64,000 nucleotides of DNA from Candidatus Kerfeldbacteria bacterium (GTDB taxonomy: Bacteria > Patescibacteriota > Patescibacteriia > UBA9570 > XYC2-FULL-38-9). Both the position numbers and the translations under genes were made by a program. The stretch is taken from contig JBDRKW010000020.1 in the NCBI GenBank assembly GCA_043813585.1, positions 265,034 through 329,033 of the forward strand. The letters are read 5' to 3'. The notes beneath the pieces were generated by a model, which saw only the letters and a list, made by a program, of their open reading frames with translations, was not told where the DNA came from and did not search any database. Below, one piece after another: positions 5,016 through 52,838 of the stretch. Within the stretch, counting starts at the first letter, position 1; each line of letters begins with the position of its first letter.

Positions 5016-6185
5016 TTAGCTGGAGGCCTCATCGGCAGCTTCTGTCTGTATTTTCTCCTCCGGTTGATGACTCTCTCCAGAATCCTCTGCCAATGCATAC
5101 CTCCCATCCTTGGTCTTATTAAATAGTGACTTGTCAGTCAATGCGAGATGGATAGTATTTTTTTTCACGATGCGCTGCTTCAGAACCATATCAACAATAT
5201 CCGAACGCTTCATCGGCTGGCCTGCCTGCTTAAGGATATCCTGAATCACGCTGGCGACAACGCCCTCTTTAAATCCCCATTCTTTCAACGCGTAAATGCC
5301 CCGTCCGACTAAAACGTATTCGTCGTTGAGGATGAGCTCGTTATGAACAGTCGGAGGATACGCAGCTTTCTTAAAGATTTTCGTAATGCGTTTGGCAATC
5401 TCTTCAAAATGCATCGGCTGGCCTTCTTTTTGCAGAACAAGAAATACGCGGTCATTCATCCGCTTCGGCTGAATTAATCCCCAGTCAGCCAGTCCATATT
5501 CGTCAAACGGGTTTCGCGCGAGCCTGGTTGAAACCTCCAGGTACGATGCAACTGAATCTTCAGTCAGCTTCTGGTCATGGTTCTTGTAGAACTCTGTTTC
5601 CTGCAATTTTTCATATAGTTCATCAAACGTTGCCGGTTTTCCAATTTGTTCAACCAGCTTCTCCAGTTCCTGGATGCCCTGATCAATAAAATCCATTGAA
5701 GTCAGGCGCAGTTTCCAGCCCGGATGGTATTTCTTGGTTTTTGGAATCTCCTCGAGCTTTTCATCTAAGAGCTGCGTAATGATAAACGAGACAGCCAGCT
5801 TATACTGCTCACTGTCCTTGTGAACGCCTAAAAGCGTCTCATACAGCATCTGCTCAGTTATCAGCCCGCCATGTTTATCGACCAGAGTTGAAACAAGATG
5901 TTCGACAGGCCGCATGATCTCCGAAAAGGCGCTGCCAGATTTTATTTTTGCGATTGATTGATTCTCGATTTGGCGAATGCGCTCGCGCGTGACGTTGTAA
6001 AACGATCCGATTGTTTCCAAAGTTTCCTTGCCTTGGTCAGTCAGACCATACCTCCGCCGTACAACATCCGCTTCTTTGGAGCCCAAAGACTTCAGGAGCG
6101 TATTCACAACCTCGAGAGGATTAAAATCCTGCTTTTCTTGGTCCTCCTTGCTTGAAAGGACCTTATCTAGAATAGAATCGGTCAT
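5016..6185 (-). CDS. Sigma-70 region 4 domain protein with two C-terminal HARE-HTH-like (RNAP delta-subunit-like) modules
   Basis: The region 4.2 HTH is ADVVRRRYGLTDQGKETLETIGSFYNVTRERIRQIENQSIAKIK. HARE-HTH-like motifs are EYGLADWGLIQP and VLVGRGIYALKEWGF. A consensus promoter lies directly upstream. Confidence 0.55.
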   Translation of the reverse strand: MTDSILDKVLSSKEDQEKQDFNPLEVVNTLLKSLGSKEADVVRRRYGLTDQGKETLETIGSFYNVTRERIRQIENQSIAKIKSGSAFSEIMRPVEHLVSTLVDKHGGLITEQMLYETLLGVHKDSEQYKLAVSFIITQLLDEKLEEIPKTKKYHPGWKLRLTSMDFIDQGIQELEKLVEQIGKPATFDELYEKLQETEFYKNHDQKLTEDSVASYLEVSTRLARNPFDEYGLADWGLIQPKRMNDRVFLVLQKEGQPMHFEEIAKRITKIFKKAAYPPTVHNELILNDEYVLVGRGIYALKEWGFKEGVVASVIQDILKQAGQPMKRSDIVDMVLKQRIVKKNTIHLALTDKSLFNKTKDGRYALAEDSGESHQPEEKIQTEAADEASS

Positions 6186-7664: not shown

Positions 7665-9347
7665 CTATTCTTTCTTTCGCTTATTGATTCCGTACCACCA
7701 CGTATTTTGCAGCCGGATAACGCCGAGTAAGTTCCGCGTAATGGTAATGGCTGAAAACATTGAAATGAGGATTCCGATAGCAAGCGTTACTGCAAAACCG
7801 CGAATCAGCGATGAACCGAACCAATACAGGATCAGGCAGGTAATGAGCGAAGAAACGTTCGAATCGCGGATTGATGTCCATGCGCGCTTAAATCCGTCGT
7901 CAATACTCTGGCCGATCGGCTTGCCGCGCCGAAGCTCTTCCTTGAAACGCTCAAATATTAGGACGTTTGCGTCCACAGCCATGCCGATCGATAAAATGAA
8001 TCCCGCAATTCCGGCAAGGGTCAGCGTAACCGGGAACAGCTTGAACACCGCAAGTACAACCAAGGAATAGATCGTCAGTGCCAGAACAGACATTACTCCC
8101 GGAAGCCGATAGTATACGATCATGAAAATCGAAAGCAGGACCAGCCCGAATATGCCAGCAAACAGGCTGCGTTCAATGGATGCCTGGCCGAGTGTCGGAC
8201 CGACGTTCTGCTGGCTGATCAGTTCGACAGGTACCGGCAATGCACCTGCATTCAGCCGCTGCGCCAGCAGTTTGGATTCTTCGAGCGTAAAATTGCCCGA
8301 GATAACCGCTTCGCCGCCGGTAATCTCCTGCTGCACCACCGGAGCACTGATAACCACGCCATCAAGATAAATCGCGACCGTTTTGCCGACATTATCTTTT
8401 GTGATCTGCGCAAACAGCTCTCGGCCCTCTTTATTGAACTGCAATGAAACGGTCGGGAGCCCGGTATTCGGGTCAAACGTCACATCCGCGTTTTCCAGCT
8501 GCTCGCCGGTCAGCGGCGTCGATTCATAGGTCGGCTCTAATAAAAGAGGTTGCTCAGATTCCTTCACAAACAAAATATGGTGAGCGCGCGCGATTTTCCC
8601 TACTTCTGTTCCTTCCTCATTATTTGCAGGCTCCTCGCGCAATTCATCCACCCTTATTATATGGTATCCAAACAGCGTTTCAACAAGCTCCGGATAAACA
8701 ACTCCAACTTCGGCTTTAGTAAATACAACGTCATCAAACTCATCCACCATCATACCCTGGCTAAATTCGCCCAAATCGCCGCCCTGTTCAGCCGATCCTG
8801 GGTCGTCAGAATATTCTGTTGCCAATGCGGCAAAATCAGCATCCGCCTTTTGCGCCTTTTTCAAAACAGTGTTCGCCTGTTTTTTGATCTTCTTATTCTC
8901 TTCCCGAACCTTTTCCCTCTCTTCATCCGTAAGTTCCGGCGGCTCGCCCTCGGTCTTAAACTCCAAAAGCGGCGTCTCACCGATTCGGTTAATCGCCTCT
9001 GTAATATCCGTTACGCCCGGCAATTCAACAAGAACGCGCCATTCGTCGCCTGAACGGACCGTCTGGATGTTCGGCTCGCCCACGCCAAACGCGTTAATGC
9101 GCCGTTCAATCACATCACGAACGCCTTCAAGCGCTGATGTGCGTTCTGTCTCGTCAATCTGCGAAACATCCGCTTTATACAAAAGTGAAGTCCCGCCCTG
9201 CAAATCCAGGCCAAGATGAACTTTAATTTCACGAAATGTATCGCCAAATGAGATATCCGGCCCTTTTGGATAATCAACAACACCAGCCAAAACAGTCAAT
9301 ACAAGTATGCCCAGGAGCGATAATCTGATTTTCGTACGCGCTTTCAT
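7665..9347 (-). CDS. secD: Protein translocase subunit SecD with a parvulin (PpiC)-type PPIase-like domain inserted in periplasmic domain P1
   Basis: SecD TM core includes [11 protein letters not shown] and [24 protein letters not shown]. Residues ~126-240 read [64 protein letters not shown], which matches the PrsA/SurA parvulin signature. Confidence 0.9.
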
Positions 9348-12457: not shown

Positions 12458-15262
12458 CTACGCCCCGTGGCATTTCTTATACTTCTTCCCCGATCCGCAC
12501 GGACACGGATCGTTGCGTCCGATCTTTTTTCCGTCAACGCTCTTTTTTTGCGAAACGAATGGCTGCTTCTGCTCCTGTTTTTCCTGGCCCTGTTGCGGCC
12601 GCTGTTCCGTCATCTCTTTCTGTGGAGCAATGTAATTGACATGTTCGCCATGCATGCGCCGATCTGCCACCATTCTCGCGTCGCGCAACTTATAAATATT
12701 ATAAACAACCTGCTTCTGAATATTATCGAGTAACTCCTGGAACATCTGATAAGACTCGCGCTTATATTCAACCAGCGGATCACGCTGGCCATAGCCGCGC
12801 AGCCCGATGGAATCACGGAGGAATGACATCTGGTCCAAGTGCTCAATCCAAAGCGTATCGATGGCGCGGAGCGTAAATCCTTTTTCCACCCGGTGGCTCA
12901 GCTCTTCGTCTCCGATCTCGTCGATCATCTTCTTGTACGCCTGCTGCGCCTGCTCCTGGAAGTAATCAATCATCTTCGTCCGCGCCTCCGCATGCTCCAG
13001 CTTCCCGTCGCCCTTGTCCGCAAGCTGATTAACGGCAACCATGCACGCCTGTTCGGTCATCGGGAAAATCGTCTTCATGACCTCGCACACCTCTTTCATG
13101 TCCCATGCCTCGGATTCTTCCTGGTTGGTATGGAACGAAACAACATGCTCTATCTCGCCTTCAATCATCTCTGAAATAGTTGCGCGCAATTTTTCCGGCT
13201 CATCGTCAAGAATCGAATTCCTCCGGCGGTAGATCGTTTCACGATGTTTATTGATAACATCGTCATATTCCAGAAGGTGCTTGCGAATATCAAAGTTCCG
13301 CGACTCCACCTTGGATTGCGCCGATTCAATCGATCGCGATACCATCTTGTTCTCGATAGGCATGTCGTCCGGCACGCCGAGCTTTCCCATAAACGACTTC
13401 ATCCGGTCGGAACCGAAAATGCGCATGAGTTCGTCATCCATGGACACGAAGAACTGGCTTGTTCCGGGATCGCCCTGGCGTCCGGTTCGCCCACGCAGCT
13501 GGTTGTCGATGCGGCGGGCTTCATGGCGTTCTGTGCCGATAACGGCCAGGCCTCCCAATTCTATCACCTTACGCGCCTCCTCAATACTGGGCGGATTGCC
13601 GCCGAGAATGATGTCAACGCCGCGGCCGGCCATATTGGTTGCCACCGTCACTGCTCCGAGCCTGCCCGCTTGCGCAATGACCTCTGCCTCTCTCTCATGC
13701 TGTTTTGCGTTCAATACGTTATGGGGGATTCCGCTGGCTGTCAACATTTGACTGAACAGTTCATTCTGTTCAATGGATATCGTGCCGACCAGCACCGGCT
13801 GCCCCTTGTCATGCAGCTCTTTGATCTGGTTGATAACCGCCTGGAACTTGCCCTGCAGATTTTTGTACACGCGGTCGGAGTAATCCGTTCGCTGCAGATC
13901 CCGATTGGTGGGAATGACCACAACGTCCAACCCGTAAATCTTGAAAAATTCCTCTGCCTCTGTTTCCGCCGTACCGGTCATGCCGCTTAATTTTTTGTAC
14001 ATGCGGAAATAATTCTGAAGTGTAATGGTTGCAAGCGTCTGTGATTCCTGCTTGATTTTTAATCCTTCTTTTGCCTCAATTGCCTGGTGCAGCCCTTCTG
14101 AATATCGCCGTCCGTGCATCAGGCGGCCTGTAAACTCATCAACGATCAACACTTCGTCTTCCTTTACGACGTAATCCTTCTCGCGCGTGAACAAACAGCG
14201 CGCTTTCAATGCCTGTTCAATATGATGAACCGTGCGCAGTCCGCCGGCCGTATAGATATTTTCAACGTTCAGCGCCTTCTCTAGTTTTTCGATCCCCTGC
14301 TCAGAGAGCGACACGGACTTCATTTTCTCGTCCACGTTGAAATCCTCGTTTTCCGTAAGCGCAGAAACAAGCTGTGAAAACTGGTAGTATTGGTCAGTCG
14401 CCTCTGCTGCCGGCGCAGAAATAATAAGCGGCGTCCTTGCTTCGTCAATTAATATGGAATCGACTTCATCAATGATAGCGAAAAACAGCTGGCGCTGAAC
14501 CCGGTCTTCCGTATTCTGCACCATATTGTCGCGCAGATAGTCAAACCCGAATTCGTTGTTCGTGCCAAAGGTGATATCGGCCTGGTACGCTTCACGGCGC
14601 GACGCTTCGCGCAGGTGGTCCATGTCGGCGACGATGAGCGACTCATTTCCCCCGCCTTCTGTTGACGGCTCGCCCTTCTCTTCATCCTGACGTTCGTCCA
14701 CGTCTTTCGGCCGGCGAACTTTCTTGATATCCGCATCATAAATAAACGCTGCCTGGTTTTGGATGCACGAAACGGTCAAACCCAAAAAATAATAGACCTG
14801 GCCCATCCAGTCCGCATCGCGGCGGGCGAGGTAATCATTCACCGTCACCACATGAACGCCTTTTCCCTCAAGTGCATTCAGGTACGCGGCGGTTGTTGCC
14901 GCCAGCGTCTTGCCTTCACCAGTGCGCATCTCCGAAATTTTGCCCCGGTGCAGCGCAAAACCGCCCATGATTTGAACATCATAATGCCGCTGCCCCAGCG
15001 TTCTCCATGCCGCCTCCCTGACAACCGCAAACGCCTCATGCGCAATATCATCAGGTGAAGCGCCGTTTTTCAGCTTCTCCTTAAACTCTGCTGTTTTTGA
15101 AGACAACGACTCGTCAGAAAGAGATTTTACCGAATCCTCCAGAGCATTGACCTTTTCTACGTCAGCCTGGATTTCCTTCAATTTCTTCTTATTTTGATCG
15201 CCAAATAATTTTTCGACGAATTTAATTGTAGCCATACGTTCGTACTCTAGTGCTTCAGACAA
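12458..15262 (-). CDS. secA: Preprotein translocase ATPase SecA
   Basis: Is 934 aa and starts [12 protein letters not shown]. Contains the DEAD-like motor and a C-terminal zinc finger [14 protein letters not shown]. Confidence 0.95.
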
Positions 15263-16247
15263 AAACCGTCAACCGCGGTTCAAGCGCCAATTTTCGTATT
15301 TCCACATATTGCGGCGTAACACGCACTGACGCGAGCGAATCTTCATATATCCGGCCATTATTCATATCATCGCTGGTATACTCCGGATAGAAGCGAATCT
15401 CGTCATTTCTCCCGATTCTGGTATGAACTGCTGAACCTTTCTGACTAAGGTGGGTCATCTGGCCTTTGGTCAGGAAAAAACGCTCCGGCGCTCCATATGT
15501 GCCAATGCGATTGGGAAATGACAGCTCCAACTGCATGCCTTGTTGTACGCGATTCCGCGGTATAGTTGCTTTTGGATCAACGTCAAACCGTTCAACAGGC
15601 TCAGGATCCAAAATTAACATATCGTGCGAAAACAACAGAGGGTCAAACACGCGTACATGCGCCGGAATCCTGAAATGCTTGCCTTCATTCCGTATACTGA
15701 CATGAATCGGCTGGACTTCGCCAATCCATTCCGGCTCCCGTTCATACACGCGGTCCAGTTCTGACATCTTTTTCGCATACTGGAATTTCTCATTGAATTG
15801 CCGGACTGAATCAACTTCGCCTAACTGGAACATGTCCTGAAGACGCAACGAGCTCGAAGCTGAAAGCACAGCCGAATATAATTTATAGAGCACTGCTTCA
15901 TCAAACAGCGCAGCCAGCACGGCAAATTCCCTGTACGCCTGTGAAAGCGCTCCAACGTCACCGTCGCCGGTTTTAAACGCCGTTATTGTCTCTTCAGTTT
16001 GGGGGAAGACCCGAACGACATCGTTATACCCCATCCACTCGGCAACAACGCGAATAAAACGCGACCCGCCCTTTTCCATGCTTTGATTCAGCCACTGAAC
16101 AGTCTTATAGACAGACGGATCCGCTACAGTGCGAATGAACTCGTCCGCGCTTTCCGGATCGAGCGGTTCGGGAACGCCGCAGAGCCACGAAACAAGCCGG
16201 CACTTTGCCGCATCAAGAGAATCTGATTGTAATTGGCTGGTATGCAT
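15255..16247 (-). CDS. Hypothetical protein of 330 aa that overlaps the secA start by 8 bp
   Basis: A clean ORF with coding-like composition. I recognise no family. It sits between hpf and secA, so it is probably co-transcribed with them. Confidence 0.5.
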
Positions 16248-16256
16248 CCTTCCTCC

Positions 16257-16652
16257 TTAGTCGCCCTGCTCTTTCCAAAATGTCAGTATTGATTTTAAAT
16301 TACGCGTATGCTTTCGCGCCTTCTTGTTTTTTGTCTCGAATTTCTCCTTGTACCTCCGGACCTGACGCTCCATCTCATCGCGACATACATCAATCGACGC
16401 ATACAAATCCTCCTGCGTCTGCTCGCACCGCAATAACTGGTTCGGTACCGAAACATTCATGCGCGTGTTGAACACATCTCCTTTTTTGTGATGCGTATTG
16501 CGCGACACCTCCACGTCAATCTCTATGATATTGTTGTAATACTTTGTAAGGCTTGCGGTCTTTTCCATGACGTACGACTTGATCGCATCGGTAAGATCCA
16601 TGTTCTTACCTGAAATATTGGTTGGCATAGGAATACCATTAATAATTGGCAC
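16257..16652 (-). CDS. hpf: Ribosome hibernation-promoting factor / RaiA (YfiA) family protein; the start may be the internal Met at about 16628
   Basis: TNISGKNMDLTDAIKSYVMEKTASLTKYY aligns with the HPF N-terminus MNINITGHHVEITDALREYV, and a C-terminal basic tail follows. Among ribosome-associated inhibitors I cannot separate the short HPF from RaiA. Confidence 0.75.
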   Translation of the reverse strand: MPIINGIPMPTNISGKNMDLTDAIKSYVMEKTASLTKYYNNIIEIDVEVSRNTHHKKGDVFNTRMNVSVPNQLLRCEQTQEDLYASIDVCRDEMERQVRRYKEKFETKNKKARKHTRNLKSILTFWKEQGD

Positions 16653-19961: not shown

Positions 19962-21230
19962 TTAGGATTTCTGACGCTGCGCCGTATGCGACGAACCGCG
20001 CGATATGTTCACTAAAATTCCTGCCGCAAACAATAGCATGATAAGCGAAGAGCTGCCATAACTGATGAACGGCAGCGTAATGCCGGTAAGCGGCAACAGG
20101 GACAGCATTGCTCCGATATTGACGAACGCCTGGAAGCCGACCCATGTCGCAATGCCGACCGCCAACAGCTTGCCAAACTGGTCCGGCGCATTCCTGGCGA
20201 CCTTCAGCGCCTGCAATGTAAAAATTAAGAACAGAGCCACAACACCCAGCGCAAATATGAAACCGAGTTCCTCGGCAATAATCGCAAAAATCGAATCGGT
20301 CGCAACTTCCGGCAGATAGTTGAACTTCTGCCGTGAATGTCCGAGACCCAGCCCGAAAAAGCCGCCCGAACCGATTGCCAGCAACGCCTGGTTCACATGG
20401 TAGCCGATCCCCTGCGGATCAATCTCAGGATTCAGGAACACCGTCAGACGGGCGGCGCGATACGGCGCAATCTTAATAAGCCCGGCAAGGGCAATAATGC
20501 CGCCCAAAAAAATGAGGCCCAGATGTTTCCATGGCGCTCCTGCGATAAAATACATAGTGACGGAAATGACTGCGATTACAATCGTCGTTCCGAGGTCTTT
20601 CTGCGCCACTGCGATCATCAGCACGAGTGCGCCCAGCATGACCAGAAACGACACAAATCCATACGAAAGATCCTCAACATCCTTACCCCTCTTCTCGAGC
20701 CATGCCGCCAAATAGATGAGGAAGGTCAACTTCACAACTTCGGACGGCTGAAAGTAAAAACCGCCGAGATTGATCCACCGTTTCGCGCCAAGAAGCTCCA
20801 CGCCAATGCCGGGAAGGAATACCGCAAACAACAGCAGCACCGTTACTGCGGCAATCGGGAAAGCATATTTTCGCCAGTAGCGATAATCTACCTTGGCCAT
20901 AATATAGAAACCCACGCCACCCAGCAAAACGCCATAAAACAATTGGTGCTTCAGGTAATGATAACTGTCGCCAAAGGCCTGGTAGGATAATACAGAACTG
21001 GCAGACGACAGCATGATCAACCCGAACAATATAATAACGCCCAGCAGTATGATAAGCGTCATATCCGGCTCTCCGAGTGAGTTCTTCAGTAACGACCGTG
21101 CCCCGGAACGCTTTCTGACATTCACTCTGCTTTCCGGAACGGCTGTGGTAATCTTCCTGCTGATACGCGAAAACGAGCGTTTTGCACGCCCGCGCTTTCT
21201 CCGCTCTTCCGGTGTATAGGACCTCGGCAT
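19962..21230 (-). CDS. ftsW: SEDS-family peptidoglycan glycosyltransferase FtsW/RodA; the N-terminal 56 basic residues may be an over-extension, with an alternative start at 21062
   Basis: A polytopic protein containing the SEDS segments NLGGFYFQPSE and AIGSGGFFGLGLG. The order ftsW-murG-murC-murB matches the conserved division/cell-wall gene-cluster order. Confidence 0.85.
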   Translation of the reverse strand: MPRSYTPEERRKRGRAKRSFSRISRKITTAVPESRVNVRKRSGARSLLKNSLGEPDMTLIILLGVIILFGLIMLSSASSVLSYQAFGDSYHYLKHQLFYGVLLGGVGFYIMAKVDYRYWRKYAFPIAAVTVLLLFAVFLPGIGVELLGAKRWINLGGFYFQPSEVVKLTFLIYLAAWLEKRGKDVEDLSYGFVSFLVMLGALVLMIAVAQKDLGTTIVIAVISVTMYFIAGAPWKHLGLIFLGGIIALAGLIKIAPYRAARLTVFLNPEIDPQGIGYHVNQALLAIGSGGFFGLGLGHSRQKFNYLPEVATDSIFAIIAEELGFIFALGVVALFLIFTLQALKVARNAPDQFGKLLAVGIATWVGFQAFVNIGAMLSLLPLTGITLPFISYGSSSLIMLLFAAGILVNISRGSSHTAQRQKS

Positions 21231-21287
21231 ACGCAGATTATACCAGAAAATGACAGGTTTTTCATCCTGAACGCCATCAATAAAAAA

Positions 21288-21310
21288 GCAGGGTCAGCGC
21301 CCTGCTTTTT
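21288..21310. terminator. Bidirectional intrinsic terminator: stem GCAGGG/CCCTGC with a 6-nt loop, flanked by an A-run and a T-run
   Basis: The plus strand reads aaaaaaGCAGGGtcagcgCCCTGCttttt. On the minus strand it ends the ~410-nt noncoding transcript that lies upstream of ftsW. Confidence 0.7.
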
Positions 21311-21717
21311 CAGTATCTTCCTACATGGTGTGAAAGGACAAGATCTGGGCTGATCTGCCAAATTGCGCGCCCCAATCAACGGCCAGACCTGAACAAAGTT
21401 CAGGCGAGGAGAGAGATTTAGGCCGAAGTTGAGTACAATTTTGCAATCCAGAACGTTTGCCCTTTCATGACCAGGCAGGAAGATCGCGTCATTCTCTCCT
21501 TCTTATCCGGGTAGTTATACCCAGAAAGGTAGTGCCATCGATTATGCTGAGGAGGAGTCACATAATGGAGGCACCACCTTTCCAGGGCTAATCAAACAGA
21601 ACCTCGGGTTTGCTGATTAGCAGCGTTTCTGGGTTAACGTTCCTCCCAGAGGTGTGATGTCTCTAGAACATGCGTTGGAGGAATTGCATATTCGAGACAT
21701 CACACCTTTGAGGTGAA
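21311..21717 (-). ncRNA. Candidate structured noncoding RNA of about 410 nt, class unknown, driven by a near-consensus promoter and ended by the 21288..21310 terminator
   Basis: There is a ~500-bp gap between lepA and ftsW in an otherwise tightly packed region, and it contains no ORF of 60 aa or more. The promoter is TTGACA, 16-bp spacer, TATAAT. A 14-bp perfect-stem hairpin occupies 21650..21707. A 12-bp imperfect hairpin spans 21521..21591. The unit ends in an intrinsic terminator. Confidence 0.55.
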
Positions 21718-21723
21718 CAAGCC

Positions 21724-21751
21724 ATTATACATGAAACAGTATCTTTGTCAA
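21724..21751 (-). promoter_or_regulatory. Near-consensus sigma-70 promoter (TTGACA, 16-bp spacer, TATAAT preceded by TG) reading into the lepA-ftsW intergenic region
   Basis: On the minus strand the -35 TTGACA is at 21751..21746 and the -10 TATAAT at 21729..21724. This places the TSS near 21717. Confidence 0.6.
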
Positions 21752-21809
21752 GGCTCTATTTGGGGATGAAAAAACAGCATCTATGACTAATCTTAGCCAA
21801 ATTATGCTG

Positions 21810-23609
21810 TTATCGCTTTAAAATAGCCAAGAATGCCTCTTGCGGAATATCCACCTTGCCCATTGATTTCATCTTTTTCTTTCCTTTTTTCTGTTTTTCA
21901 AGGAGTTTGCGCTTTCGTGACACATCCCCGCCATAGAGTTTTGCCGTAACATCCTTGCGCATTGGCGGAATCCGCTCGCCTGCAATAACCTTACTGCCAA
22001 TTGCCGCCTGTATCTTCACTTCAAACATCTGGCGCGGCAACAGATCCTTTAACGCCTTCACCACACTGCGGCCGGCCCGCTCAGCTTCATCCCGGTACAC
22101 CATTGATGCCAATGCACCAATCGACTCTTCAGCAACTAGTATATCCATCCGGACGATATTCGCATTCTGATACCCGTTGAACTCATAGTTGAGTGACCCG
22201 TAACCGGACGTAACATTTTTCAATTTATCATAAAAATCCACCACCAAGCCGGCAAGCGGCACTACGTAGTGAATGATCACGCGCGTTTCATCTATATATT
22301 CCAATTCATTTTTTGCGGGAGTCGCGCGCTTTTCCGAAAGCAGCTGCATCACTGCGCCAATATAAGTGGTAGGCGTCACGATGTCTGCGGTCATAACCGG
22401 CTCTTCAATATGTTCGATAGTGGACGGATCCGGCAGATCCAGAGGGGAAGATACAATCTGGTTCTTTCCGTCGTTCGTGAAGACCCGGTACGCCACCGAC
22501 GGCGTTGTGACGATCAGGTCCAGGTCAAACTCCCTCCGCAGCCGTTCACTGATAATATCAAGATGCAGCATCCCAAGAAATCCGCACCTGAATCCAAAAC
22601 CAAGCGCAACCGAGTTTTCCGGCTCATACACCAGCGCGGCATCATTGAGCTTCAAACGGCCCACGGCTTCGCGCAGCTCAGGATATCTTGACGTATCTTT
22701 TGCGTAGATGCCGGCGTACACCATCGGCCTTACTTCCTTGTATCCCGGTAACGGATCCTCTGCCTGATGTGCGCGCAACGTCACCGTATCGCCAACGCGC
22801 GCATCGCTGACCCCTTTAAATCCCGTTACGATATAACCAATCTCTCCTGCTCCGAGGGAATCCTTCTTTTGGAGCGATGGGTGAAACGTCCCGACTTCCA
22901 ATGCTTCTGAATGCGTCCCCTGTCCCATCAAATAAATGCTGTCCCCGGTTTTTATTGACCCGTCTTCAACGCGGACATATGCAATCACGCCGCGGTAATC
23001 ATCAAATACAGAATCGAAAATAAGCGCGCGTGTCCATTCCGGCGTTGTCTCCACCGGCGGCGGAACCTGGGCAACAATCGCCTGTAAGACCTGTTCGACA
23101 TTTTCACCTGTCTTGGCGGATATTTTAATGATATCATCGTCCGAACATCCAATCAGCTTTTGTATCTCAGCGCTCACGCGCGGCACATCGGCAACCGGAA
23201 GGTCGATTTTATTGATCACGGGAATAATGGTGAGATCCTGCTCCAGCGCAAGGTACAGATTCGCAAGCGTTTGAGCCTGTATGCCCTGGGAAGCATCGAC
23301 AACCAAAAGCGCTCCCTCGCAGGCCTGAAGCGACCGGGATACTTCATATGAAAAATCAACATGCCCGGGGGTATCGATCAAATTTATTATGTACTCCCTA
23401 CCGTCCACCGTATACCGCATGCGCGCGGGCTGCAGCTTAATCGTAATGCCGCGTTCGCGCTCAAGATCCATCTGATCAAGAACCTGTTCTTTCATCTCGC
23501 GCTTGTCGACAGTGTGCGTCAATTCCAACAGCCGGTCCGCCAGCGTGGACTTTCCGTGGTCAATATGAGCGAGTATGCAGAAATTTCGTATCTGATCCAT
23601 AGCGTGCAT
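21810..23609 (-). CDS. lepA: Elongation factor 4 (LepA)
   Basis: Has the GTPase motifs AHIDHGKST and DTPGHVDF, and the LepA-specific C-terminal domain. Confidence 0.95.
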   Translation of the reverse strand: MHAMDQIRNFCILAHIDHGKSTLADRLLELTHTVDKREMKEQVLDQMDLERERGITIKLQPARMRYTVDGREYIINLIDTPGHVDFSYEVSRSLQACEGALLVVDASQGIQAQTLANLYLALEQDLTIIPVINKIDLPVADVPRVSAEIQKLIGCSDDDIIKISAKTGENVEQVLQAIVAQVPPPVETTPEWTRALIFDSVFDDYRGVIAYVRVEDGSIKTGDSIYLMGQGTHSEALEVGTFHPSLQKKDSLGAGEIGYIVTGFKGVSDARVGDTVTLRAHQAEDPLPGYKEVRPMVYAGIYAKDTSRYPELREAVGRLKLNDAALVYEPENSVALGFGFRCGFLGMLHLDIISERLRREFDLDLIVTTPSVAYRVFTNDGKNQIVSSPLDLPDPSTIEHIEEPVMTADIVTPTTYIGAVMQLLSEKRATPAKNELEYIDETRVIIHYVVPLAGLVVDFYDKLKNVTSGYGSLNYEFNGYQNANIVRMDILVAEESIGALASMVYRDEAERAGRSVVKALKDLLPRQMFEVKIQAAIGSKVIAGERIPPMRKDVTAKLYGGDVSRKRKLLEKQKKGKKKMKSMGKVDIPQEAFLAILKR

Positions 23610-23641: not shown

Positions 23642-25225
23642 TCACCCGGTAATCTGCCTCCACATGCTTATGGCTTTATCCCGAATGGTATACGCCTCCT
23701 TGAAACGGAACTGTGCGGCGATCAGGATGTATGTTACGCCACCTGCAAGAATCGCTGCCAAACTCTGAATAAGTATTCCTTTAAATGTCTGCATATCCAC
23801 CATCGGGGCAACAATATATTTCGCTCCTTGGATGACCAGGCCCATTCCGAGTGAAGCGATAATAATCTTCCAGGTTGAAGAGATAAGCAGTTCGTCATCC
23901 AGGTCGCCATGGCGCACGCGAAGAGTGGCAAGCAATGCGACCATTTGGAACAGTGCCGCTATGGAAAACGCGAGCGCCAGTCCGGTTACTCCCATGGAAC
24001 CGGCCAGCGAAAGCGCGAGCACGATATTTAACGCCATTGCAATTGAACTTATAACGACCGGGGTCTTCGTGTCCTGCTTTGCGAAGAACGAGCGTGCCAG
24101 AAGCGGTATGGCCGCCTGCGCAAACATGGAGAGTGCAAACATTCCAAGAGTTTGCGCAGTTAAAATCGTATCAGTCCAGTCAAACTCGCCGGAACCATAG
24201 ACGAGACGAACGATCTGGGCACGAAGCAGCAGCGTCGCGATAGAAATCGGAATAATAAAAAATAAAATCCGGCGAAAACTTTCAGAAAACAGCTTTTTAA
24301 ACGCGTTGATATCTTTTTTTGCAAACGCCTCGGAAAAAACCGGAAATGCAGCAAGCGCAAGCGACACGCCAAAAATATTAATGGGAAAGTGCTGCAAGTT
24401 ATCCGCAAATTGCCAAATTGAACGCGTCCCTTCGTCCATCGTAGATGCAATCGCGAATATGATTATGATATTCAATTGCGTCAGTCCCAGGGCAAACGCC
24501 CGCGGCGGCATCAGTTTAATGATTTGGCGTACTCCCGCATTCCTCAGCTGCATAATCGGTGCGTAGCGGAAACCGGCACGCATAGCACCAGGTAGCAAAA
24601 TGAGAAAATGAAGTGCCGCTCCAAGAACAACACCAAGCGCCAGGCCAATGTCTCCAATCATCGGCTTCAATACCAGGATGCCTATAATGATTCCGACATT
24701 GTACAAAATCGGCGCCATGGCATACACGAAAAATTTCTTGTACGCGTGCAGAACTCCCGATAACACATTACTCACTCCCAGAAGAACCAAAGAGGCAAGC
24801 ATGAGCCTCGTAAAGAGAACCGTCGTCTCCTGTTGCGCCGCAGTATCGCCAAACGCGATCAACGAAACTATCCACGGGGCAAAAATAAAGCAGAGTACGG
24901 CAAAACCGATGAGGGACAAAAGCGCAAGGTTCAATACCGAATTAGCGATCTTCATCGCTTCCTGTTCGCCCTTGTTCTTTTTAAACTCGATAAACACCGG
25001 CACAAACGCCGCTGACAGCAGACCGAGAACAAAAATATTAAAGATAAAATCCGGAATCTTGAACGCAGTAAAATAACTGTCGAGCAGTTCCCCAGGGCCG
25101 ATTGTTGCTGATAATAAACGGTCGCGTAACAGGCCCAAAATACGACTTAACACTGAAGCAGAGCCGATGATGATGGCTCCGCCCGCTATTGTCTTTTGAA
25201 GTTTTCCGATAAATCGCTCTGGCAT
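23642..25225 (-). CDS. murJ: Lipid II flippase MurJ (MviN)
   Basis: Is 527 aa with 14 TM segments. Contains LSRILGLLRDRLLSATIG and FFIIPISIATLL, typical of the MurJ/MOP family. Confidence 0.85.
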   Translation of the reverse strand: MPERFIGKLQKTIAGGAIIIGSASVLSRILGLLRDRLLSATIGPGELLDSYFTAFKIPDFIFNIFVLGLLSAAFVPVFIEFKKNKGEQEAMKIANSVLNLALLSLIGFAVLCFIFAPWIVSLIAFGDTAAQQETTVLFTRLMLASLVLLGVSNVLSGVLHAYKKFFVYAMAPILYNVGIIIGILVLKPMIGDIGLALGVVLGAALHFLILLPGAMRAGFRYAPIMQLRNAGVRQIIKLMPPRAFALGLTQLNIIIIFAIASTMDEGTRSIWQFADNLQHFPINIFGVSLALAAFPVFSEAFAKKDINAFKKLFSESFRRILFFIIPISIATLLLRAQIVRLVYGSGEFDWTDTILTAQTLGMFALSMFAQAAIPLLARSFFAKQDTKTPVVISSIAMALNIVLALSLAGSMGVTGLALAFSIAALFQMVALLATLRVRHGDLDDELLISSTWKIIIASLGMGLVIQGAKYIVAPMVDMQTFKGILIQSLAAILAGGVTYILIAAQFRFKEAYTIRDKAISMWRQITG

Positions 25226-27693: not shown

Positions 27694-28813
27694 AAAGATT
27701 GAGGGTTTGTCTCGCCATGTCGCTCCACGAATACTTCTTCACCTGAAGAAAACCCTTATTGATCAGCTCTTGCCTTGTTGAAGGGTTATCACTAACCGTT
27801 TTAATGGCGTTTATTATACCAGAAACGTCCTCCGGATGGAAGTATAGTGCCGCGTCCCCTAGTATCTCATGCAGGCAGGATGATTTTGCCGCCAGTACCG
27901 GTGCGCCATAGCTCATCGCTTCCAATGGCGGAAGGCCAAAACCCTCATACCGCGAAGGAAAAATATACGCCAGCGCATTTCTATACAGCGCCGGTAGCTC
28001 TTTGTCCGGAACAAACTCGGTAAACAGGACGTTGTCATCAACGTTCTTCGCCCATGCATCCTGCTTCAATCGTTTATAAAAATGATCCATCTTGCCAACG
28101 AGTACGAACTTCCATGGCACCTGGTCATAAGTATCATTCAGCATTTTGGCAACGTCCAGCAGCGTCTCCAGGTTTTTATGCGGATACGCGTTGCCAACAT
28201 ACAACACGTACGGCTTCTTTATGGAGTAGCCGGCCAACACGCTTTCGTCATCCGACACGTCTTCATCCTGCCGCGGGGCATCGGCCGCCTCATAGGTTAC
28301 CGTGACTTTCTCGCCAGGAATATCGTAATAGCGAACTATATCCTGCTTGGAAAATTCCGACACCGTAATGATTTGCTGCGAATTACGCACCGCATGGCGC
28401 ATGACCATCTTACCGGCCCAATGCTTGAACTTATACAGCAGCGGTCCTAGCGTTGTTGCGCGCTCTGTAGGAAAATGAATGATGATAAGGTCATGGATTG
28501 TCGCGATGAAAGGTTTCCGGTACATCAACGGCACGTTAAAATGAGGGAAGTGCATGAAATCAACACCTGCTCTCCAAATCTTCAGCGGCATAAACACCTG
28601 CTCTTTAAACGTATACCAGTGGTATGGTGCGAGGACTGGCGTAAATTTCGGATTGGAAATCTTCCAGTTCTTAAAAGAGTCTTCCTGAAGAAAAACCACA
28701 TATTCATTGTCGTGGTCGTATTCAGCGAGGTATTCAATCAGCTTCTGCGTATACCGTCCTAACCCCTTTGACTGCTCGCCGCCATAAAATCGTGCGTCGA
28801 TGCCAATCTTCAT
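27638..28813 (-). CDS. GT4-family glycosyltransferase
   Basis: The C-terminal EX7E region is EGFGLPPLEAMSYGAPVLAAKSSCLHEILGDAALYF. Confidence 0.75.
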   Translation of the reverse strand: MKIGIDARFYGGEQSKGLGRYTQKLIEYLAEYDHDNEYVVFLQEDSFKNWKISNPKFTPVLAPYHWYTFKEQVFMPLKIWRAGVDFMHFPHFNVPLMYRKPFIATIHDLIIIHFPTERATTLGPLLYKFKHWAGKMVMRHAVRNSQQIITVSEFSKQDIVRYYDIPGEKVTVTYEAADAPRQDEDVSDDESVLAGYSIKKPYVLYVGNAYPHKNLETLLDVAKMLNDTYDQVPWKFVLVGKMDHFYKRLKQDAWAKNVDDNVLFTEFVPDKELPALYRNALAYIFPSRYEGFGLPPLEAMSYGAPVLAAKSSCLHEILGDAALYFHPEDVSGIINAIKTVSDNPSTRQELINKGFLQVKKYSWSDMARQTLNLYEQLGKHKENNTSEQAKG

Positions 28814-29523
28814 TTAACGGCTTTGAAAATAATAAATGGCGGATGGTGGCGTTCCTCCCCTAACCGTTTGTCATCCTGGTATTCAACCGCAATCGGCTCC
28901 AGAACGCCCGTAATCATGAAGCCTGCTCCCTTTATCACATCCTCGTAGTCTTTCCGGGTCCAATAATAGTCATCGAACTCCAGGTCTATGCTGTTGGTGA
29001 AAAGCCGGACATGCACACGATCGCCGCTTTTTTCGTCATGTATTTCATCGGACTGAAATGACGTAAACTTCTTCCCGTGCGTTTCCGGATGCGGATCCAT
29101 AAGCACAAAAACTCCGCCGTCAGGAAGCTTATTGTAGATGCGCTGCGTCAGGTCTTGCAGCGTTTCCTTGTTTGGAATAGTGCAGTAGACAAAATTTGCG
29201 CAGACACGGTCAAACTCGAATGCATCCACCTCTTCATGAGTAATGATATGGTGGTACTCAATGCCCAAACTGGTCTCCGTGCGGCGCAGCGCATTATCTA
29301 TTGCAGCCTGGGATGTATCAACCCCGATAATGCGCGATAACGGGTATTGGCGCGCAGTATAGCGCGTAAACCTGCCGTTGCCGCACCCGTAATCGAGTAT
29401 GGTCCGACGGTTAAGGTCGCCGAACAATTTGAGTACGCTCGGGTAACCCAACAACCAGTCAGTCGTCGCGTTAACCGCCTGGTACATGTCTGCCAATTCA
29501 TCCCAATACTGCTTCGTATCCAT
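28810..29523 (-). CDS. Class I SAM-dependent methyltransferase
   Basis: Motif I is ILDYGCGNGRFT. There is a 4-bp overlap with the downstream GT4 gene. Confidence 0.75.
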   Translation of the reverse strand: MDTKQYWDELADMYQAVNATTDWLLGYPSVLKLFGDLNRRTILDYGCGNGRFTRYTARQYPLSRIIGVDTSQAAIDNALRRTETSLGIEYHHIITHEEVDAFEFDRVCANFVYCTIPNKETLQDLTQRIYNKLPDGGVFVLMDPHPETHGKKFTSFQSDEIHDEKSGDRVHVRLFTNSIDLEFDDYYWTRKDYEDVIKGAGFMITGVLEPIAVEYQDDKRLGEERHHPPFIIFKAVK

Positions 29524-32619: not shown

Positions 32620-33399
32620 CTACGCCTTCTTATTCTTGGGTGAATATCGATACAAATAATACCATAAACCAAGGCCGATAACAACCATTCCTATTGCCGC
32701 ATATTGAGGCATGGTGAGCCCGGCATAGCGGGTATCTACAGCTTCCAGGTCTGTCGCCCTGAAAAAATCCAGGATGAACCGCACGATGCCGTACCATACA
32801 AGGAAAAGCGCCGTATAAAAACCCGGTTTTCGATCTGCCTTTATCCTCCAAATTACCAAAAAAAGAATCATCAGCAGTAACCCGCTTAATGAAAGGTATA
32901 AACCGTGGTTGTGGCGCACAATGCCGTCGATATATTCCTGACCGAGAAAAAAAGAGGTTGGTGTTCCTGGATGATCGTATACAAAGAAGCAGCCGAGCCT
33001 GCCGATCCAAAGTCCAACCGGCAAACCAAATATAATTATGTCTGAATATGTTAAAAAATCCTTTTTCTTATGGCGCAAATAGAACCAACCGGCTGTAAAG
33101 GCGCCGATGAAGCCGCCAATAATTGACATGCCGCCCTCCCATACCTTGAAAACATCGATTAATGAATCTGCGTATGAGCTGAATTCGAGCGCAACATACA
33201 ACAAACGGCCTCCTATCATGCTGCCCAGGATACCCCAAAACGCGAGATCAATAATGTCTTCCCGGGGAACACCGCGTCGTTTCGCTTCTATTACAGACAA
33301 CACAATTGCCGCAACAACTCCCAAAGCAACCATAAGCCCCCATATGCGGATTGGGATCGGTCCTATATCAAATTGGATGATTCGAAAATATGGAATCAT
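32620..33399 (-). CDS. lgt: Prolipoprotein diacylglyceryl transferase Lgt
   Basis: Starts MIPYFRIIQFDIGPIPIRIWGLMVALG and contains GGRLLY and GRLGCFF, the Lgt signature region. Confidence 0.85.
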   Translation of the reverse strand: MIPYFRIIQFDIGPIPIRIWGLMVALGVVAAIVLSVIEAKRRGVPREDIIDLAFWGILGSMIGGRLLYVALEFSSYADSLIDVFKVWEGGMSIIGGFIGAFTAGWFYLRHKKKDFLTYSDIIIFGLPVGLWIGRLGCFFVYDHPGTPTSFFLGQEYIDGIVRHNHGLYLSLSGLLLMILFLVIWRIKADRKPGFYTALFLVWYGIVRFILDFFRATDLEAVDTRYAGLTMPQYAAIGMVVIGLGLWYYLYRYSPKNKKA

Positions 33400-34586
33400 T
33401 GGGAGATGATTATCGGCGGCCTCCCGTTTCCATTTGACTCTTTGTTAGTATTTTCTTCAATTAAATCCTGGCTTGCATTATTATCTTCCTCGATGGGCTG
33501 AACAGACTCTGTTTCCACAGGAACTTCTTCTGCATCCCCGTCTTGTTGTTCAGTATCATCGACTTGCGTCGCCTCCTCAACATCAGGAAGGCCGATTGCT
33601 CTCTCGCGAAGCAATGTTTCTATCCATGCCACAACAGCACTATATCCCTGCTCAAATCCATCCGCGGCAGGATCAGAAAGAAAATCATGCTCGCCGTTCT
33701 CAATGTCCAGCATTAATACTGTCAGTGCTGTTTGCACGTGCATTACCGTCAAACGCTCGCTTTGAATAGCCGGCACAAGAGCATCCTTTGAATTATGGAG
33801 TACCAGCATCGGCACTGTCTCGTCATATTCATCAGTCACTGCCAGACTGCGTAAACACTGTTCTTCCTGCAAAGCTGTAGTACACCCCGTCTGCTGAAGG
33901 AATGTTTGTGCCGTTACCTGATTCGTGTTGTTAAGATGCTTGAACTGGTCAGCCGGATCAATATATGGATACGCGATGATAATCCCGTCAACCTGGACGT
34001 CGCGCGTCGCCAGCAAAGAAAGATACGCGCCATACCCCAGCCCCAGTACGATGACCGGCTCGTCCTTAACATGGACAAAGTCGGACATCTCATCAACAGC
34101 TGATATAACATCTGTCAGGTCGTCCTCCGCAAAATCGCTGTCGCGCCAGTCAACCGTAAAGGTCAAAGCGTTAAACTGTTCCATCAGCCGCTCTCCTAAT
34201 ACGTCATGCACGCGGTCTGTTGCCCTGCTTGAAGCCGGAGCATCATGTATAATGATAATCGCCGGAAATGGCCCATCGCCTTCCGGTTTGGACAACCGGG
34301 CGCGCACTGTTTCACCGTCACGGGCAATATAGCCTGCCTCGTATCCATGGAGAGCTTCAATGCCCAGTTTCGGTTCAAAGAGCGATTCAATCTCCTCAGT
34401 ATCCGGAATCGCCTGATCCAGTATTTCATCCAAAGAAGGAACATCTGCTGACCGCTGCTGCAAAAAAGCCTGCCCTTTGTCGGAAAGCTGCAAATATTTC
34501 AAAATAACAACCGCTACAATCATGATCACGATGACGGCAGCCGTTAACGGCTTGATAATTTCCTGTGTGAGTTTCCTCCGGGGCAT
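33396..34586 (-). CDS. Membrane-anchored alpha/beta-hydrolase-fold protein whose nucleophile motif reads GYG instead of GxSxG (a possible pseudo-enzyme), with an acidic C-terminal tail
   Basis: Has an N-terminal TM helix. PFPAIIIIHDAPAS and VIVLGLGYGAYLSL occupy the nucleophile-elbow position, but no Ser or Cys is present there. Confidence 0.45.
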   Translation of the reverse strand: MPRRKLTQEIIKPLTAAVIVIMIVAVVILKYLQLSDKGQAFLQQRSADVPSLDEILDQAIPDTEEIESLFEPKLGIEALHGYEAGYIARDGETVRARLSKPEGDGPFPAIIIIHDAPASSRATDRVHDVLGERLMEQFNALTFTVDWRDSDFAEDDLTDVISAVDEMSDFVHVKDEPVIVLGLGYGAYLSLLATRDVQVDGIIIAYPYIDPADQFKHLNNTNQVTAQTFLQQTGCTTALQEEQCLRSLAVTDEYDETVPMLVLHNSKDALVPAIQSERLTVMHVQTALTVLMLDIENGEHDFLSDPAADGFEQGYSAVVAWIETLLRERAIGLPDVEEATQVDDTEQQDGDAEEVPVETESVQPIEEDNNASQDLIEENTNKESNGNGRPPIIISQ

Positions 34587-36881: not shown

Positions 36882-37547
36882 TTATTGTTTCACTTTTTTC
36901 CAGTCGTTCGAAAATTTCTTCATGCCTGCGTCCGTGAGCTTGTGGTTGAACAACTCATGAAACACATCCGGCGGAACGGTTGCCGCATCAGCGCCGGCAA
37001 GAGCTGCGCGGCGGACATGCTCGGTTTTTCTGATGCTCGCGGCCAATACGGCTGTATCGAACCCGTACATATCGTACAGTAGGGATATTTCCTCCACCAG
37101 CTCCATGCCGTCCACGCCGCTGTCATCCAAACGGCCGACGAATGGTGAAACAAACGTTGCGCCTGCTTTTGCAGCAAGCAACGCCTGATTCGCATGAAAT
37201 ACCAGAGTGACATTCACTTTTGCGCCCTGTTTGCGTAATTTAGCGCATGCCTTGATGCCCTCTTCGGTCATCGGCACCTTGATGGTAATATTTTTATGAA
37301 TCTTCAACAGCGGTTGAGCTTCTTTGACCATATCATTCGCCTTCTCAGCCGTGACTTCGGCGCTGATCGGTCCATTCACAATCATTGCAATATCCTTCAC
37401 GACCTCTGAAAACTTCCTTCCGGATTTCAAAATTAATGACGGATTTGTCGTTACGCCGTCTACCATGCCGGTTTCTGCTGCTGCGCGGATCTCCTCCACG
37501 TCAGCACTATCTATAAATATTTTCATGCAGGGTTTATAAAATATCAC
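36882..37547 (-). CDS. Fructose-6-phosphate aldolase / type 3 transaldolase (Fsa/TalC family); the likely start is MKIFIDSAD at 37526
   Basis: Starts [14 protein letters not shown] and contains GVTTNPSLI, with the Schiff-base Lys in [11 protein letters not shown]. Confidence 0.85.
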
Positions 37548-49306: not shown

Positions 49307-49660
49307 TTAATGAGGAGTTTGCGTATATAAATCCATAAATGTTCCCGAGTCTGATCCTGTTGTTCCGAGAACTCCGGAGTACATGTCAAAAATTGGTTGG
49401 AAACTGTCCATTATCCATGGCAGCGCAATGATAGAAATGATAAGAGGCACGACAAGAAAAATAACTACTGCAATGAAACGCGCCACCTGCATCCACTTCA
49501 TGTGCTTGGTGATCTTCAAAATCTCCAGCAGGATCTTGTGATTCTGGTTGGCAAGAGCATTCGTGTCGATGCTCAGCGCAACCGTATCCACGTCGCGCTT
49601 CGCCGTTTTTTTACTGGCGGCCGTATCTGCCTGTCCGGTTTGTTTATCGATCTTTGCCAT
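49307..49660 (-). CDS. Hypothetical small membrane protein
   Basis: Has one or two TM segments (VARFIAVVIFLVVPLIISIIALPWI). I recognise no family. Confidence 0.4.
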   Translation of the reverse strand: MAKIDKQTGQADTAASKKTAKRDVDTVALSIDTNALANQNHKILLEILKITKHMKWMQVARFIAVVIFLVVPLIISIIALPWIMDSFQPIFDMYSGVLGTTGSDSGTFMDLYTQTPH

Positions 49661-50249
49661 AGGATGCGCAATTCAAGTCTCCTCCCGCCTGAACCTGCTC
49701 ATTCCTGCGCGCCAGCCACTGCGGCGCCCGCTTCCATGCATGCAATGCGATGAACGATACGCTTGGAACAATGATCAACGTCCCGATCATCTGATATTTC
49801 AGAAACGGCAACCCGGCAACATACGACATCACCAAACCATCAAGCGTCTTTGGATACATCCACCCCATCTGCCACACGCCAAAATTTGTCCAGGCATAAA
49901 AGAAGACATTCGCAAACAGGCCCATGCCTGTCAGCTCGAACGAATGGCGCAGCGGCGTTTTGCCGCGTTTCCGCACTGCCCAGCCAAACAAGCCGACTGC
50001 CGCCCACGCAGACCAGGTATAGAGCATAATGCTCGTATTCCCGATAAAGATATCCGTGATCGCTACAACTACAAGACCGACAATGATTGTCCATACTCCT
50101 CCCAGCAGCGATCCAGCCAACAGTGCGACTACCGTAATTGTCTCAATATTCGGCACATCCTTCAGAAGATACCGGCCGCCTGCGCCAAATGCAATCAAAA
50201 CAACGGCAGAAACGACCTTCAAAACGGTAAATTGTTTATTCATGTTCAT
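49644..50249 (-). CDS. Polytopic membrane protein resembling an ECF-transporter S-component; substrate unknown
   Basis: Is about 200 aa with 5-6 TM segments. It lies immediately downstream of nrdJ. The assignment rests only on size and topology, so it is weak. Confidence 0.3.
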   Translation of the reverse strand: MNMNKQFTVLKVVSAVVLIAFGAGGRYLLKDVPNIETITVVALLAGSLLGGVWTIIVGLVVVAITDIFIGNTSIMLYTWSAWAAVGLFGWAVRKRGKTPLRHSFELTGMGLFANVFFYAWTNFGVWQMGWMYPKTLDGLVMSYVAGLPFLKYQMIGTLIIVPSVSFIALHAWKRAPQWLARRNEQVQAGGDLNCASYGKDR

Positions 50250-52706: not shown

Positions 52707-52838
52707 ATACGTTTCCTTAGTTTGATACTTTTTTTGAGAGTGAAAGACACAGCCGCCACAGGCGTGGCGTTCTGGCTGCGCCATTGATTTTCCTCCTCAT
52801 CGTCTCCGTTGCTCCTTTTTGCGAACTTCAGCAGAAAT

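Follow-up and report, generated by a model that had tools for sequence, protein, structure and literature searches.

Invariant anti-Shine-Dalgarno-like motifs in a predicted structured RNA between lepA and ftsW of Candidatus Kerfeldbacteria

We analysed a 64-kb stretch of DNA (the window) from a Candidatus Kerfeldbacteria metagenome-assembled genome (MAG), in which the gap between lepA and ftsW is predicted to encode a stand-alone, promoter-to-terminator structured noncoding RNA. This gap RNA carries invariant CU-rich motifs that resemble the anti-Shine-Dalgarno (anti-SD) sequence and lie in unpaired positions. They are its defining feature and were missed by an earlier note on the same DNA, which had described the gap as an unclassified structured RNA. 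We consider that the RNA may be a trans-acting base-pairing riboregulator with anti-SD-like seeds, the reading that we favour, with a probability of about 0.45. Its expression, its action in trans and its mRNA partners are things that we infer from the sequence.

The gap RNA and its conserved parts

A Candidatus Kerfeldbacteria MAG encodes a protein 100% identical to the window LepA. Relatives (labelled L081-L116) were gathered through LepA homologues of 73-79% identity and one metagenome pattern scan. The scan gave 21 loci, of which only four were real (L092, L095, L105 and L109), the rest being chance matches without the hairpin described below. Thirteen distinct loci were compared: the window, L081-L085 (L085 = L109), L087, L089, L092 (= L112/L113/L095), L105, L111, L114 (= L115) and L116. 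The order murJ-lepA-gap-ftsW is kept in all of them except L116, where the RNA follows lepA although the next gene is not ftsW, and the gap measures 180-1030 nt.

A hairpin of ~70 nt stands shortly downstream of lepA in 13/13 loci. Its loop is GACUCCUCCUCA, or GAUUCCUCCUCA in L114; written as GA(C/U)UCCUCCUCA it is invariant in all 13 loci, and the stems diverge. Two copies of the hairpin occur in the window, L081 and L085; those of the window are h1 and the core hairpin h2. The loop of the first copy has drifted to AAUUCCUCC(A/U)AC in the window and L081, and h1 of L085 keeps the canonical GACUCCUCCUCA. The two long hairpins that the earlier note had placed at 21650-21707 and 21521-21591 are present, each being longer than stated there (~78 nt; limits in Table 1). 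The perfect 14-bp stem AGGUGUGAUGUCUC/GAGACAUCACACCU is situated within the first of these two intervals.

Covariation was measured in an alignment of 16 hairpins from the 13 loci, with a structure of 24 pairs. Standard pairs filled 96.9% of the cells, and 19 of the 24 pairs had changed on both sides. None of 500 shuffles reached any of the observed measures, and sliding the partner by 1-3 columns left 35-50% of cells paired. UCCUCC is invariant in 16/16 hairpins. Across the 13 core hairpins all 12 loop nucleotides and the purine-pyrimidine (R-Y) closing pairs are invariant, C/U exchange aside. Selection acts both on the structure of the RNA and on the sequence of its loop. Conservation of the gap RNA in relatives and covariation among homologous gaps, two things by which the earlier note had proposed to judge it, are therefore both found.

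The CU-rich motifs have an unpaired probability of 0.84-1.0 in 13 transcripts, compared with a transcript mean of ~0.3. Their core UCCUCC is complementary to GGAGGA.

Six long forms (window, L081, L084, L085, L092 and L114) carry in addition a 3' domain closed by long-range helices. Independent minimum free energy (MFE) folds of the six gave the same helices P1, P1b, P2 and P3, an unpaired AAUCUCUCUCCUC, the hairpin that follows it, and the terminator. AAUCUCUCUCCUC is invariant in 6/6 long forms and unpaired in 6/6 folds; the hairpin right after it is also present in all six and differs in sequence among them. The RNAalifold consensus recovered P1-P3 and the terminator, and covariance model (CM) R2 scored 165 bits. 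As the MAFFT alignment of the domain was poor in the variable interior, the outer helices alone were scored. In the alignment fitted to the model 88.5% of cells were paired, compared with 47-62% after sliding, and eight pairs had double changes. We regard the structural support for the predicted 3' domain as moderate. Ahead of the domain, GGAGAG is found in all long forms but L114, which has GCGAGAG instead (five of six). In the window the GGAGAGA box could form a pseudoknot with UCUCUCC of the CU-rich segment. The short forms (L082, L083, L089, L105 and L111) have no 3' domain, and in several of them the core hairpin with a U-run makes an apparent terminator. From ~110 to ~900 nt among the relatives, the architecture has a sole common core, the one loop-bearing hairpin. 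In L087, gap positions ~400-530, between the core hairpin and ftsW, form a GC-rich, structured-looking segment that is unrelated to the window 3' domain and has no Rfam match.

The near-consensus sigma-70 promoter reported in the earlier note was recovered by the promoter scan with a 12/12 match. Promoter-like sites are enriched in the region (4 compared with 0.9 expected), every one of them on the minus strand, and a promoter of the form TTGAC[ATG]-N16-17-TAnnnT stands at the equivalent place upstream of the first hairpin in 13/13 loci. The transcription start site (TSS) was put 6-7 nt downstream of the -10 hexamer and the 3' end at the U-run of the terminator, giving a predicted primary transcript of ~437 nt. 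The discrete noncoding unit of the earlier note therefore stands, with its length of ~410 nt corrected. Its strong bidirectional terminator stands as well: the inverted repeat and the MFE fold extend it to 21282-21310, it can be read as a terminator in either direction, and its helix (helix 4) has compensatory changes in six homologues. The automatic terminator scan did not list it, probably because A/U runs lengthen the stem and consume the U tail that the rule needs.

The minus-strand fold of 21280-21720 has a free energy of -188.5 kcal/mol (z = -10.9; 0/100 shuffles as stable), and the plus-strand fold of the same region has z = -8.0. Both the frequent G-U pairs and the CM scores (minus strand, 82 and 70 bits; plus strand, 28 and 37 bits) put the transcript on the strand of lepA.

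No known RNA was identified. With 4227 Rfam families (Rfam 15) at gathering thresholds, cmscan gave no match in the whole window or in the 12 related loci, in agreement with the earlier note's proposal of an unrecognised class. At E <=10 the gap gave only chance hairpins of eukaryotic miRNA type (best E = 0.026, 23 bits compared with a gathering threshold of 70), and the RNase P, tmRNA, signal recognition particle (SRP) and 6S models had no match there. ARAGORN found 0 tRNA or tmRNA genes. An RNase-P-like string, 'ACAGAACC', is the plus-strand reading of the non-conserved linker hairpin at 21586-21624.

Neither gap-like sequence (nhmmer) nor the hairpin (CM) was found in 80 other Patescibacteria lepA loci (LepA identity <=64%, among the matches listed). 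The core-hairpin CM found no further copy elsewhere in the window, the next match scoring 12 bits, and two pattern scans of viral contigs gave chance matches only and no copy of the gap RNA. The gap RNA represents a previously undescribed RNA family so far seen only in Kerfeldbacteria, which belong to the Patescibacteria, or Candidate Phyla Radiation (CPR). With clear boundaries, strong covariation and an invariant motif, the new family is well supported and could be deposited in Rfam.

Table 1. Position of the features discussed in the text, in window coordinates, with the support for each.
Feature	Position	Strand	Support
Predicted primary transcript, ~437 nt	~21718 to 21282	-	TSS and 3' end inferred
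Sigma-70 promoter	TTGACA 21751-21746, 16-nt spacer, TATAAT 21729-21724	-	promoter scan, 12/12 match
UCAUCCCCA, degenerate 7/9 copy of the TTATCCACA-like box	21761-21769	-	position comparison with relatives
Hairpin h1, paralogue of core hairpin	21640-21717	-	CM R1 70.5 bits, E = 5.7e-18; MFE
h1 loop AAUUCCUCCAAC	21674-21685	-	unpaired probability 0.99
Variable linker hairpin GCUAAUCAGCAAACC...GGUUCUGUUUGAUUAGC	21586-21624	-	MFE; sequence not conserved in L081
Core hairpin h2	21515-21591	-	CM R1 82.1 bits, E = 2.5e-21
h2 invariant loop GACUCCUCCUCA	21548-21559	-	unpaired probability 0.84
GGAGAGA purine box, 5' edge of 3' domain	21493-21499	-	six-locus comparison
3' domain closed by long-range helices	21315-21484	-	inverted repeats I3 and I9; six MFE folds; RNAalifold
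P1	21475-21484 with 21315-21324	-	
P1b	21470-21473 with 21326-21329	-	
P2	21457-21467 with 21331-21341	-	
P3	21448-21452 with 21344-21348	-	
Unpaired CU-rich segment AAAUCUCUCUCCUC	21406-21419	-	unpaired probability 0.85-1.0
Hairpin P5 GCCUGAAC-UUU-GUUCAGGU, immediately 3' of CU-rich segment	21387-21405	-	MFE
Intrinsic terminator AAAAAGCAGGG-CGCUGA-CCCUGCUUUUUU	21282-21310	-	11-nt perfect inverted repeat I4; MFE fold
ftsW extended -10 promoter TGGTATAAT, then 6 nt, then ATG	21228-21245	-	promoter scan 21265-21237 with TG
lepA terminator hairpin ACAGCAU...AUGCUGU, then UUUUUU	21769-21810	-	read from sequence
ftsW	19962-21230	-	Pfam
lepA	21810-23609	-	Pfam
murJ	23642-25225	-	Pfam

As shown in Table 1, the gap lies among minus-strand genes, of which murG and murC were also identified by Pfam. 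It spans 21231-21809 (579 bp). The earlier note had claimed that it holds no open reading frame (ORF) of at least 60 aa; this is borne out for ORFs wholly inside the gap, the internal ones being 41, 44 and 47 aa. An 85-aa ORF with a TTG start (21122-21379, minus strand) begins within the gap and extends out of frame into ftsW. The terminator hairpin of lepA starts at the final base of the lepA stop codon, and its tip is the palindrome GCUAAGAUUAGU (21787-21798, minus strand). A palindrome GCTAA-N2-TTAGY occurs 40-55 nt upstream of the -35 hexamer, directly past the lepA stop, in 8 of the 13 loci. This GCUAA-N2-UUAG(C/U) palindrome after lepA could equally be an operator-like protein site.

Possible function of the CU-rich motifs

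We propose that the long stable helices of the gap RNA would be a scaffold that keeps three anti-SD-like motifs single-stranded, namely the h1 loop AAUUCCUCCAAC, the h2 loop GACUCCUCCUCA and the internal segment AAAUCUCUCUCCUC. These seeds would pair antisense with translation-initiation regions rich in purines (GGAGG/GAGGAG) in a limited number of mRNAs, and the pairing would block ribosome binding, as in NfeR1/CcsR and in the UCCC loops of RNAIII.

Only two genes in the window have strong SDs. One of them encodes a class II-type ribonucleotide reductase (RNR) with barrel and TSCPD domains (Pfam), located at 50346-52784 on the minus strand and preceded by GAUGAGGAGGAAAAUCA-AUG. Nine nucleotides of this site, UGAGGAGGA, are perfectly complementary to the h2 loop, with a duplex energy of -17.4 kcal/mol compared with a median of -8.2 kcal/mol. 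The other (15255-16247, minus strand), preceded by AAGGAGGAAGG-AUG, encodes 330 aa with no Pfam family. These matches are suggestive, and the two genes are candidate targets.

Two further observations concern these genes. The RNR complement to the main loop can also be written GAUGAGGAGGA, and the 225-nt gap upstream of the RNR gene (52785-53009) holds extra GGAG boxes and has no Rfam match. Immediately upstream of gene 15255-16247 is a gene for a ribosome hibernation factor (S30AE/HPF; 16257-16652, minus strand).

Leaderless initiation may be common in this genome. TATAAT/TATACT-like -10 boxes end 5-9 nt upstream of the start codon in 8 of 53 window genes, compared with 0.85 expected: 28810-29523, 36882-37547, 45978-47813, 49644-50249, 33396-34586, 7665-9347, 54978-57656 and ftsW. 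Upstream of the same 53 genes, SD-like motifs occur at chance (4 compared with 4.5 in shuffles). The Kerfeldbacteria genome seems, on these counts, to rely largely on leaderless or SD-independent initiation, and targets of an anti-SD RNA would therefore be few. In the library searched, we found no literature on Kerfeldbacteria RNAs, on regulatory RNAs in the clade, or on leaderless or SD usage in Patescibacteria.

Besides this scarcity of SD motifs, several points weigh against anti-SD pairing. Expression of the gap RNA is itself a prediction, and the high expression supposed in the earlier note has a consensus promoter as its sole evidence. The ranking of targets was undiscriminating, several genes scoring alike within the 64 kb that it covered. 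The 12 invariant loop nucleotides exceed what generic SD pairing needs, and a single specific partner, or a protein, would explain them just as well. The gap RNA also holds purine boxes of its own (GGGAGGAA and GGAGAGA), which could pair with the CU motifs intramolecularly, and the L084 RNA has four GAGGAG(A) boxes flanking its core hairpin (gap positions ~120-160 and ~245-275) that are complementary to the CU motifs. To judge by the L084 boxes, the RNA of some lineages may pair within the molecule or as a dimer. At 25-30 bp, the stems are far longer than those of known anti-SD small RNAs (sRNAs) and resemble RNase III substrates. Covariation in the 3' domain comes from six sequences in an alignment fitted to the model.

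Alternative explanations

The excess of loop conservation over the need of SD pairing also bears on a different, rather unlikely explanation, in which the gap RNA is a protein-binding or decoy RNA. Its loops would mimic the 3' tail of 16S rRNA (GAUCACCUCCUUA) and titrate or recruit a protein that recognises this tail, or the RNA would serve as a scaffold. The invariance of the 12 loop nucleotides and R-Y closing pairs in 13 lineages and the rarity of SD-led genes are in keeping with such a role. So is the constant linkage of the gene to lepA, even in L116, where ftsW is not the next gene. LepA/EF4 has been linked to 30S maturation and SD-dependent initiation. However, the linkage may be inherited synteny within one clade, and no candidate protein was identified. 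Nothing but UCCUC is common to the three CU motifs, whose sequences and contexts differ, and this suits a pairing seed better than a single protein site.

The gap RNA might instead act in cis, as a strongly transcribed and terminated unit that insulates or modulates the leaderless ftsW-murG-murC promoter next to it by occlusion, by transcriptional interference, or by conditional read-through that gives an untranslatable leadered ftsW mRNA; we think this improbable. The extended -10 promoter of ftsW, TGnTATAMT, lies 5-10 nt upstream of the ATG in 11/12 ftsW-linked loci (21237-21245 in the window), and ftsW appears from this to be transcribed leaderless from its own promoter. In those 11 loci the terminator, or the core hairpin in short forms, abuts the extended -10, and promoter, structured RNA, terminator and gene follow one another in an order that recalls an attenuator. 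Cell-cycle control is hinted at by a TTATCCACA-like box that several relatives have upstream of the RNA promoter. On the other hand, insulation needs neither an invariant 12-nt loop nor a conserved 3' domain, the RNA persists in L116 with no ftsW downstream, no alternative anti-terminator pairing is evident, and at ftsW the CU motifs would find no SD to mask.

A related idea, that the gap RNA is an ftsW leader or riboswitch, is weakened by the conserved extended -10 at the ATG and by the L116 arrangement. As ftsW has this promoter of its own, the gap RNA is not its leader.

The TTATCCACA-like box starts at a fixed place, 16-18 nt ahead of the first base of the -35 hexamer. TTATCCACA matches the DnaA-box consensus. 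L105 has it intact (9/9), L083 (CTATCCACA), L111 (TTTTCCACA) and L116 (TTATCCACC) match it at 8/9 positions each, and L084 (TATTCCACA) at 7/9. The box may be a transcription-factor site that ties the gap RNA to the cell cycle.

Coding potential was also considered. No ORF shared among the loci was found. In the window an AUG that opens 24 codons comes 2 nt (AAUG) past a GGAGAGA box (box and AUG, 21491-21499), and in the alignment both this frame and a 47-aa frame are shifted relative to L081, the closest relative of the window, with the nucleotides still conserved. A coding function was rejected on the lack of a conserved ORF and on these shifted frames; a 'DSSS' peptide merely mirrors the invariant loop. 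GC-rich inserts of ~400-500 nt separate the hairpin module from the 3' domain in L085 (= L109) and L092/L112. They contain SD-led ORFs for hydrophobic peptides of 49-70 aa (L085, ~5265-5516; L092/L112, gap ~409-622). The L085 and L092 ORFs are not homologous to each other, and neither reaches the Pfam cut-off for any family. Among 5.8 billion proteins the L092 ORF has a single near-identical cluster and counts as an orphan. We read the insert ORFs as lineage-specific insertions; in those lineages SD sequestration in cis or a toxin-like function may apply.

These inserts speak for the idea, which has about one chance in ten, that the gap RNA is a remnant or dual-function small-protein mRNA like those of type I toxins, with CU hairpins sequestering an SD in cis and the ORF lost from the window. 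The window and L081 do keep an SD-like box followed by AUG at the same place. However, the two insert ORFs are unrelated, the window 24-codon frame is not conserved with L081, and the hairpin is kept in the 9/13 loci, all short forms included, that have no such ORF.

We see a negligible chance that the RNA is a housekeeping RNA (RNase P, tmRNA, SRP or 6S) that has diverged strongly, the other option of the earlier note, or that the gap is an inert spacer made up of selfish or REP-like hairpins. A length of ~400 nt and high structure would suit RNase P or tmRNA, aberrant housekeeping RNAs are known from CPR lineages, and long near-perfect hairpins can be repeat elements, but no model matches even at E <=10, no tmRNA was found, the length varies among close relatives with one hairpin shared, and covariation with an invariant loop excludes an inert spacer. 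A dispersed repeat (REP/MITE) was rejected because the CM finds just the two gap copies in 64 kb.

Comparison with known systems

Like RNase P RNA, tmRNA, SRP RNA and 6S RNA, the gap RNA looks abundant, has a stand-alone gene with a consensus promoter and is highly structured over a few hundred nt. It differs from them in having no CM match and no ARAGORN tmRNA, and in a length and domain content that vary wildly among close relatives.

Successive anti-SD hairpins that trap an SD are known from the aapA1 toxin mRNA of H. pylori. With such type I toxin mRNAs (aapA1, hok-type) the gap RNA shares 5' hairpins with CU-rich anti-SD motifs, long-range closure of a 3' domain and, in two relatives, small hydrophobic SD-led ORFs. 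Unlike them it has no conserved ORF, and no promoter for an antisense antitoxin was detected, every promoter-like site being on the minus strand.

As for the class of trans-acting anti-SD sRNAs, the in silico features of the gap RNA include both a promoter and terminator of its own and an accessible CU seed. It is predicted to be separate from the flanking mRNAs because the lepA terminator lies upstream and the ftsW promoter downstream. In RNAIII and the Rsa sRNAs of S. aureus (UCCC loop) and in RsaE/RoxS, C-rich motifs in hairpin loops pair with the ribosome-binding sites of several mRNAs (PMC4615179). RNAIII also has several loops of this kind in a large (~500 nt) RNA of many hairpins (PMC4615179, PMC2790875). 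There is no similarity of sequence or structure between RNAIII and the gap RNA, RNAIII encodes delta-haemolysin, and the motif of the gap RNA is longer and U-rich (CUCCUCCUC). Moreover, Firmicutes use strong SDs and the Kerfeldbacteria genome does not.

The closest likeness is to the cuckoo (alpha-r14) sRNAs, which include NfeR1/SmelC397 of Sinorhizobium meliloti and CcsR1-4/RSs0680a-d of Rhodobacter sphaeroides. These carry an identical, ultraconserved anti-SD motif in the loops of hairpins with highly variable stems, and in NfeR1 redundant anti-SD motifs occlude the ribosome-binding sites of ntrB and ABC-transporter mRNAs, which are thereby silenced (PMC4615179, PMC10746234). Like them, the gap RNA is modular, has a variable number of hairpins with an invariant loop and free stems, and is intergenic with a terminator. 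The differences are considerable. The motif here is CUCCUCCUC, UUCCUCC or UCUCUCUCCUC, and the cuckoo motif CCUCCUCCC is absent. Cuckoo RNAs have 2-4 adjacent motif hairpins, whereas here there are 1-2 hairpins, and an internal segment carries the third motif. The cuckoo family model has hairpins of 24-50 nt, loops of 9-27 nt and no multiloops (PMC4615179); the gap RNA has hairpins of ~70-78 nt with stems of 25-30 bp, and a multi-helix 3' domain with nested long-range helices. It has one copy at a fixed lepA-linked locus, in contrast to several paralogous loci, in a host that barely uses SD. Finally, alpha-r14 is alphaproteobacterial, the gap RNA belongs to Patescibacteria, and no Rfam match of alpha-r14 type was found even at E <=10. 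The relation of the gap RNA to cuckoo/alpha-r14 and to RNAIII is one of analogy, not homology.

A more specific form of the anti-SD proposal, which we hold to be doubtful, is that the gap RNA is a CPR-specific riboregulator that copies the ribosomal anti-SD, in a lineage which has mostly given up SD-led initiation for leaderless mRNAs, and silences the few mRNAs still dependent on an SD (such as that of RNR), tied to the cell cycle by its position between lepA/EF4 and ftsW and by the DnaA-box-like site, and convergent with cuckoo/NfeR1. If so, no regulatory sRNA family would have been described from Patescibacteria before it, and the cuckoo/NfeR1 design would have arisen independently. Apart from this specific form, the gap RNA is a second, phylogenetically remote case of variable stems showing invariant anti-SD-like loops, which argues for convergent evolution of such regulation. 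It also gives a handle on the balance of SD-dependent and SD-independent translation in these uncultured organisms of reduced genome, which appear to use leaderless initiation widely and SDs rarely.

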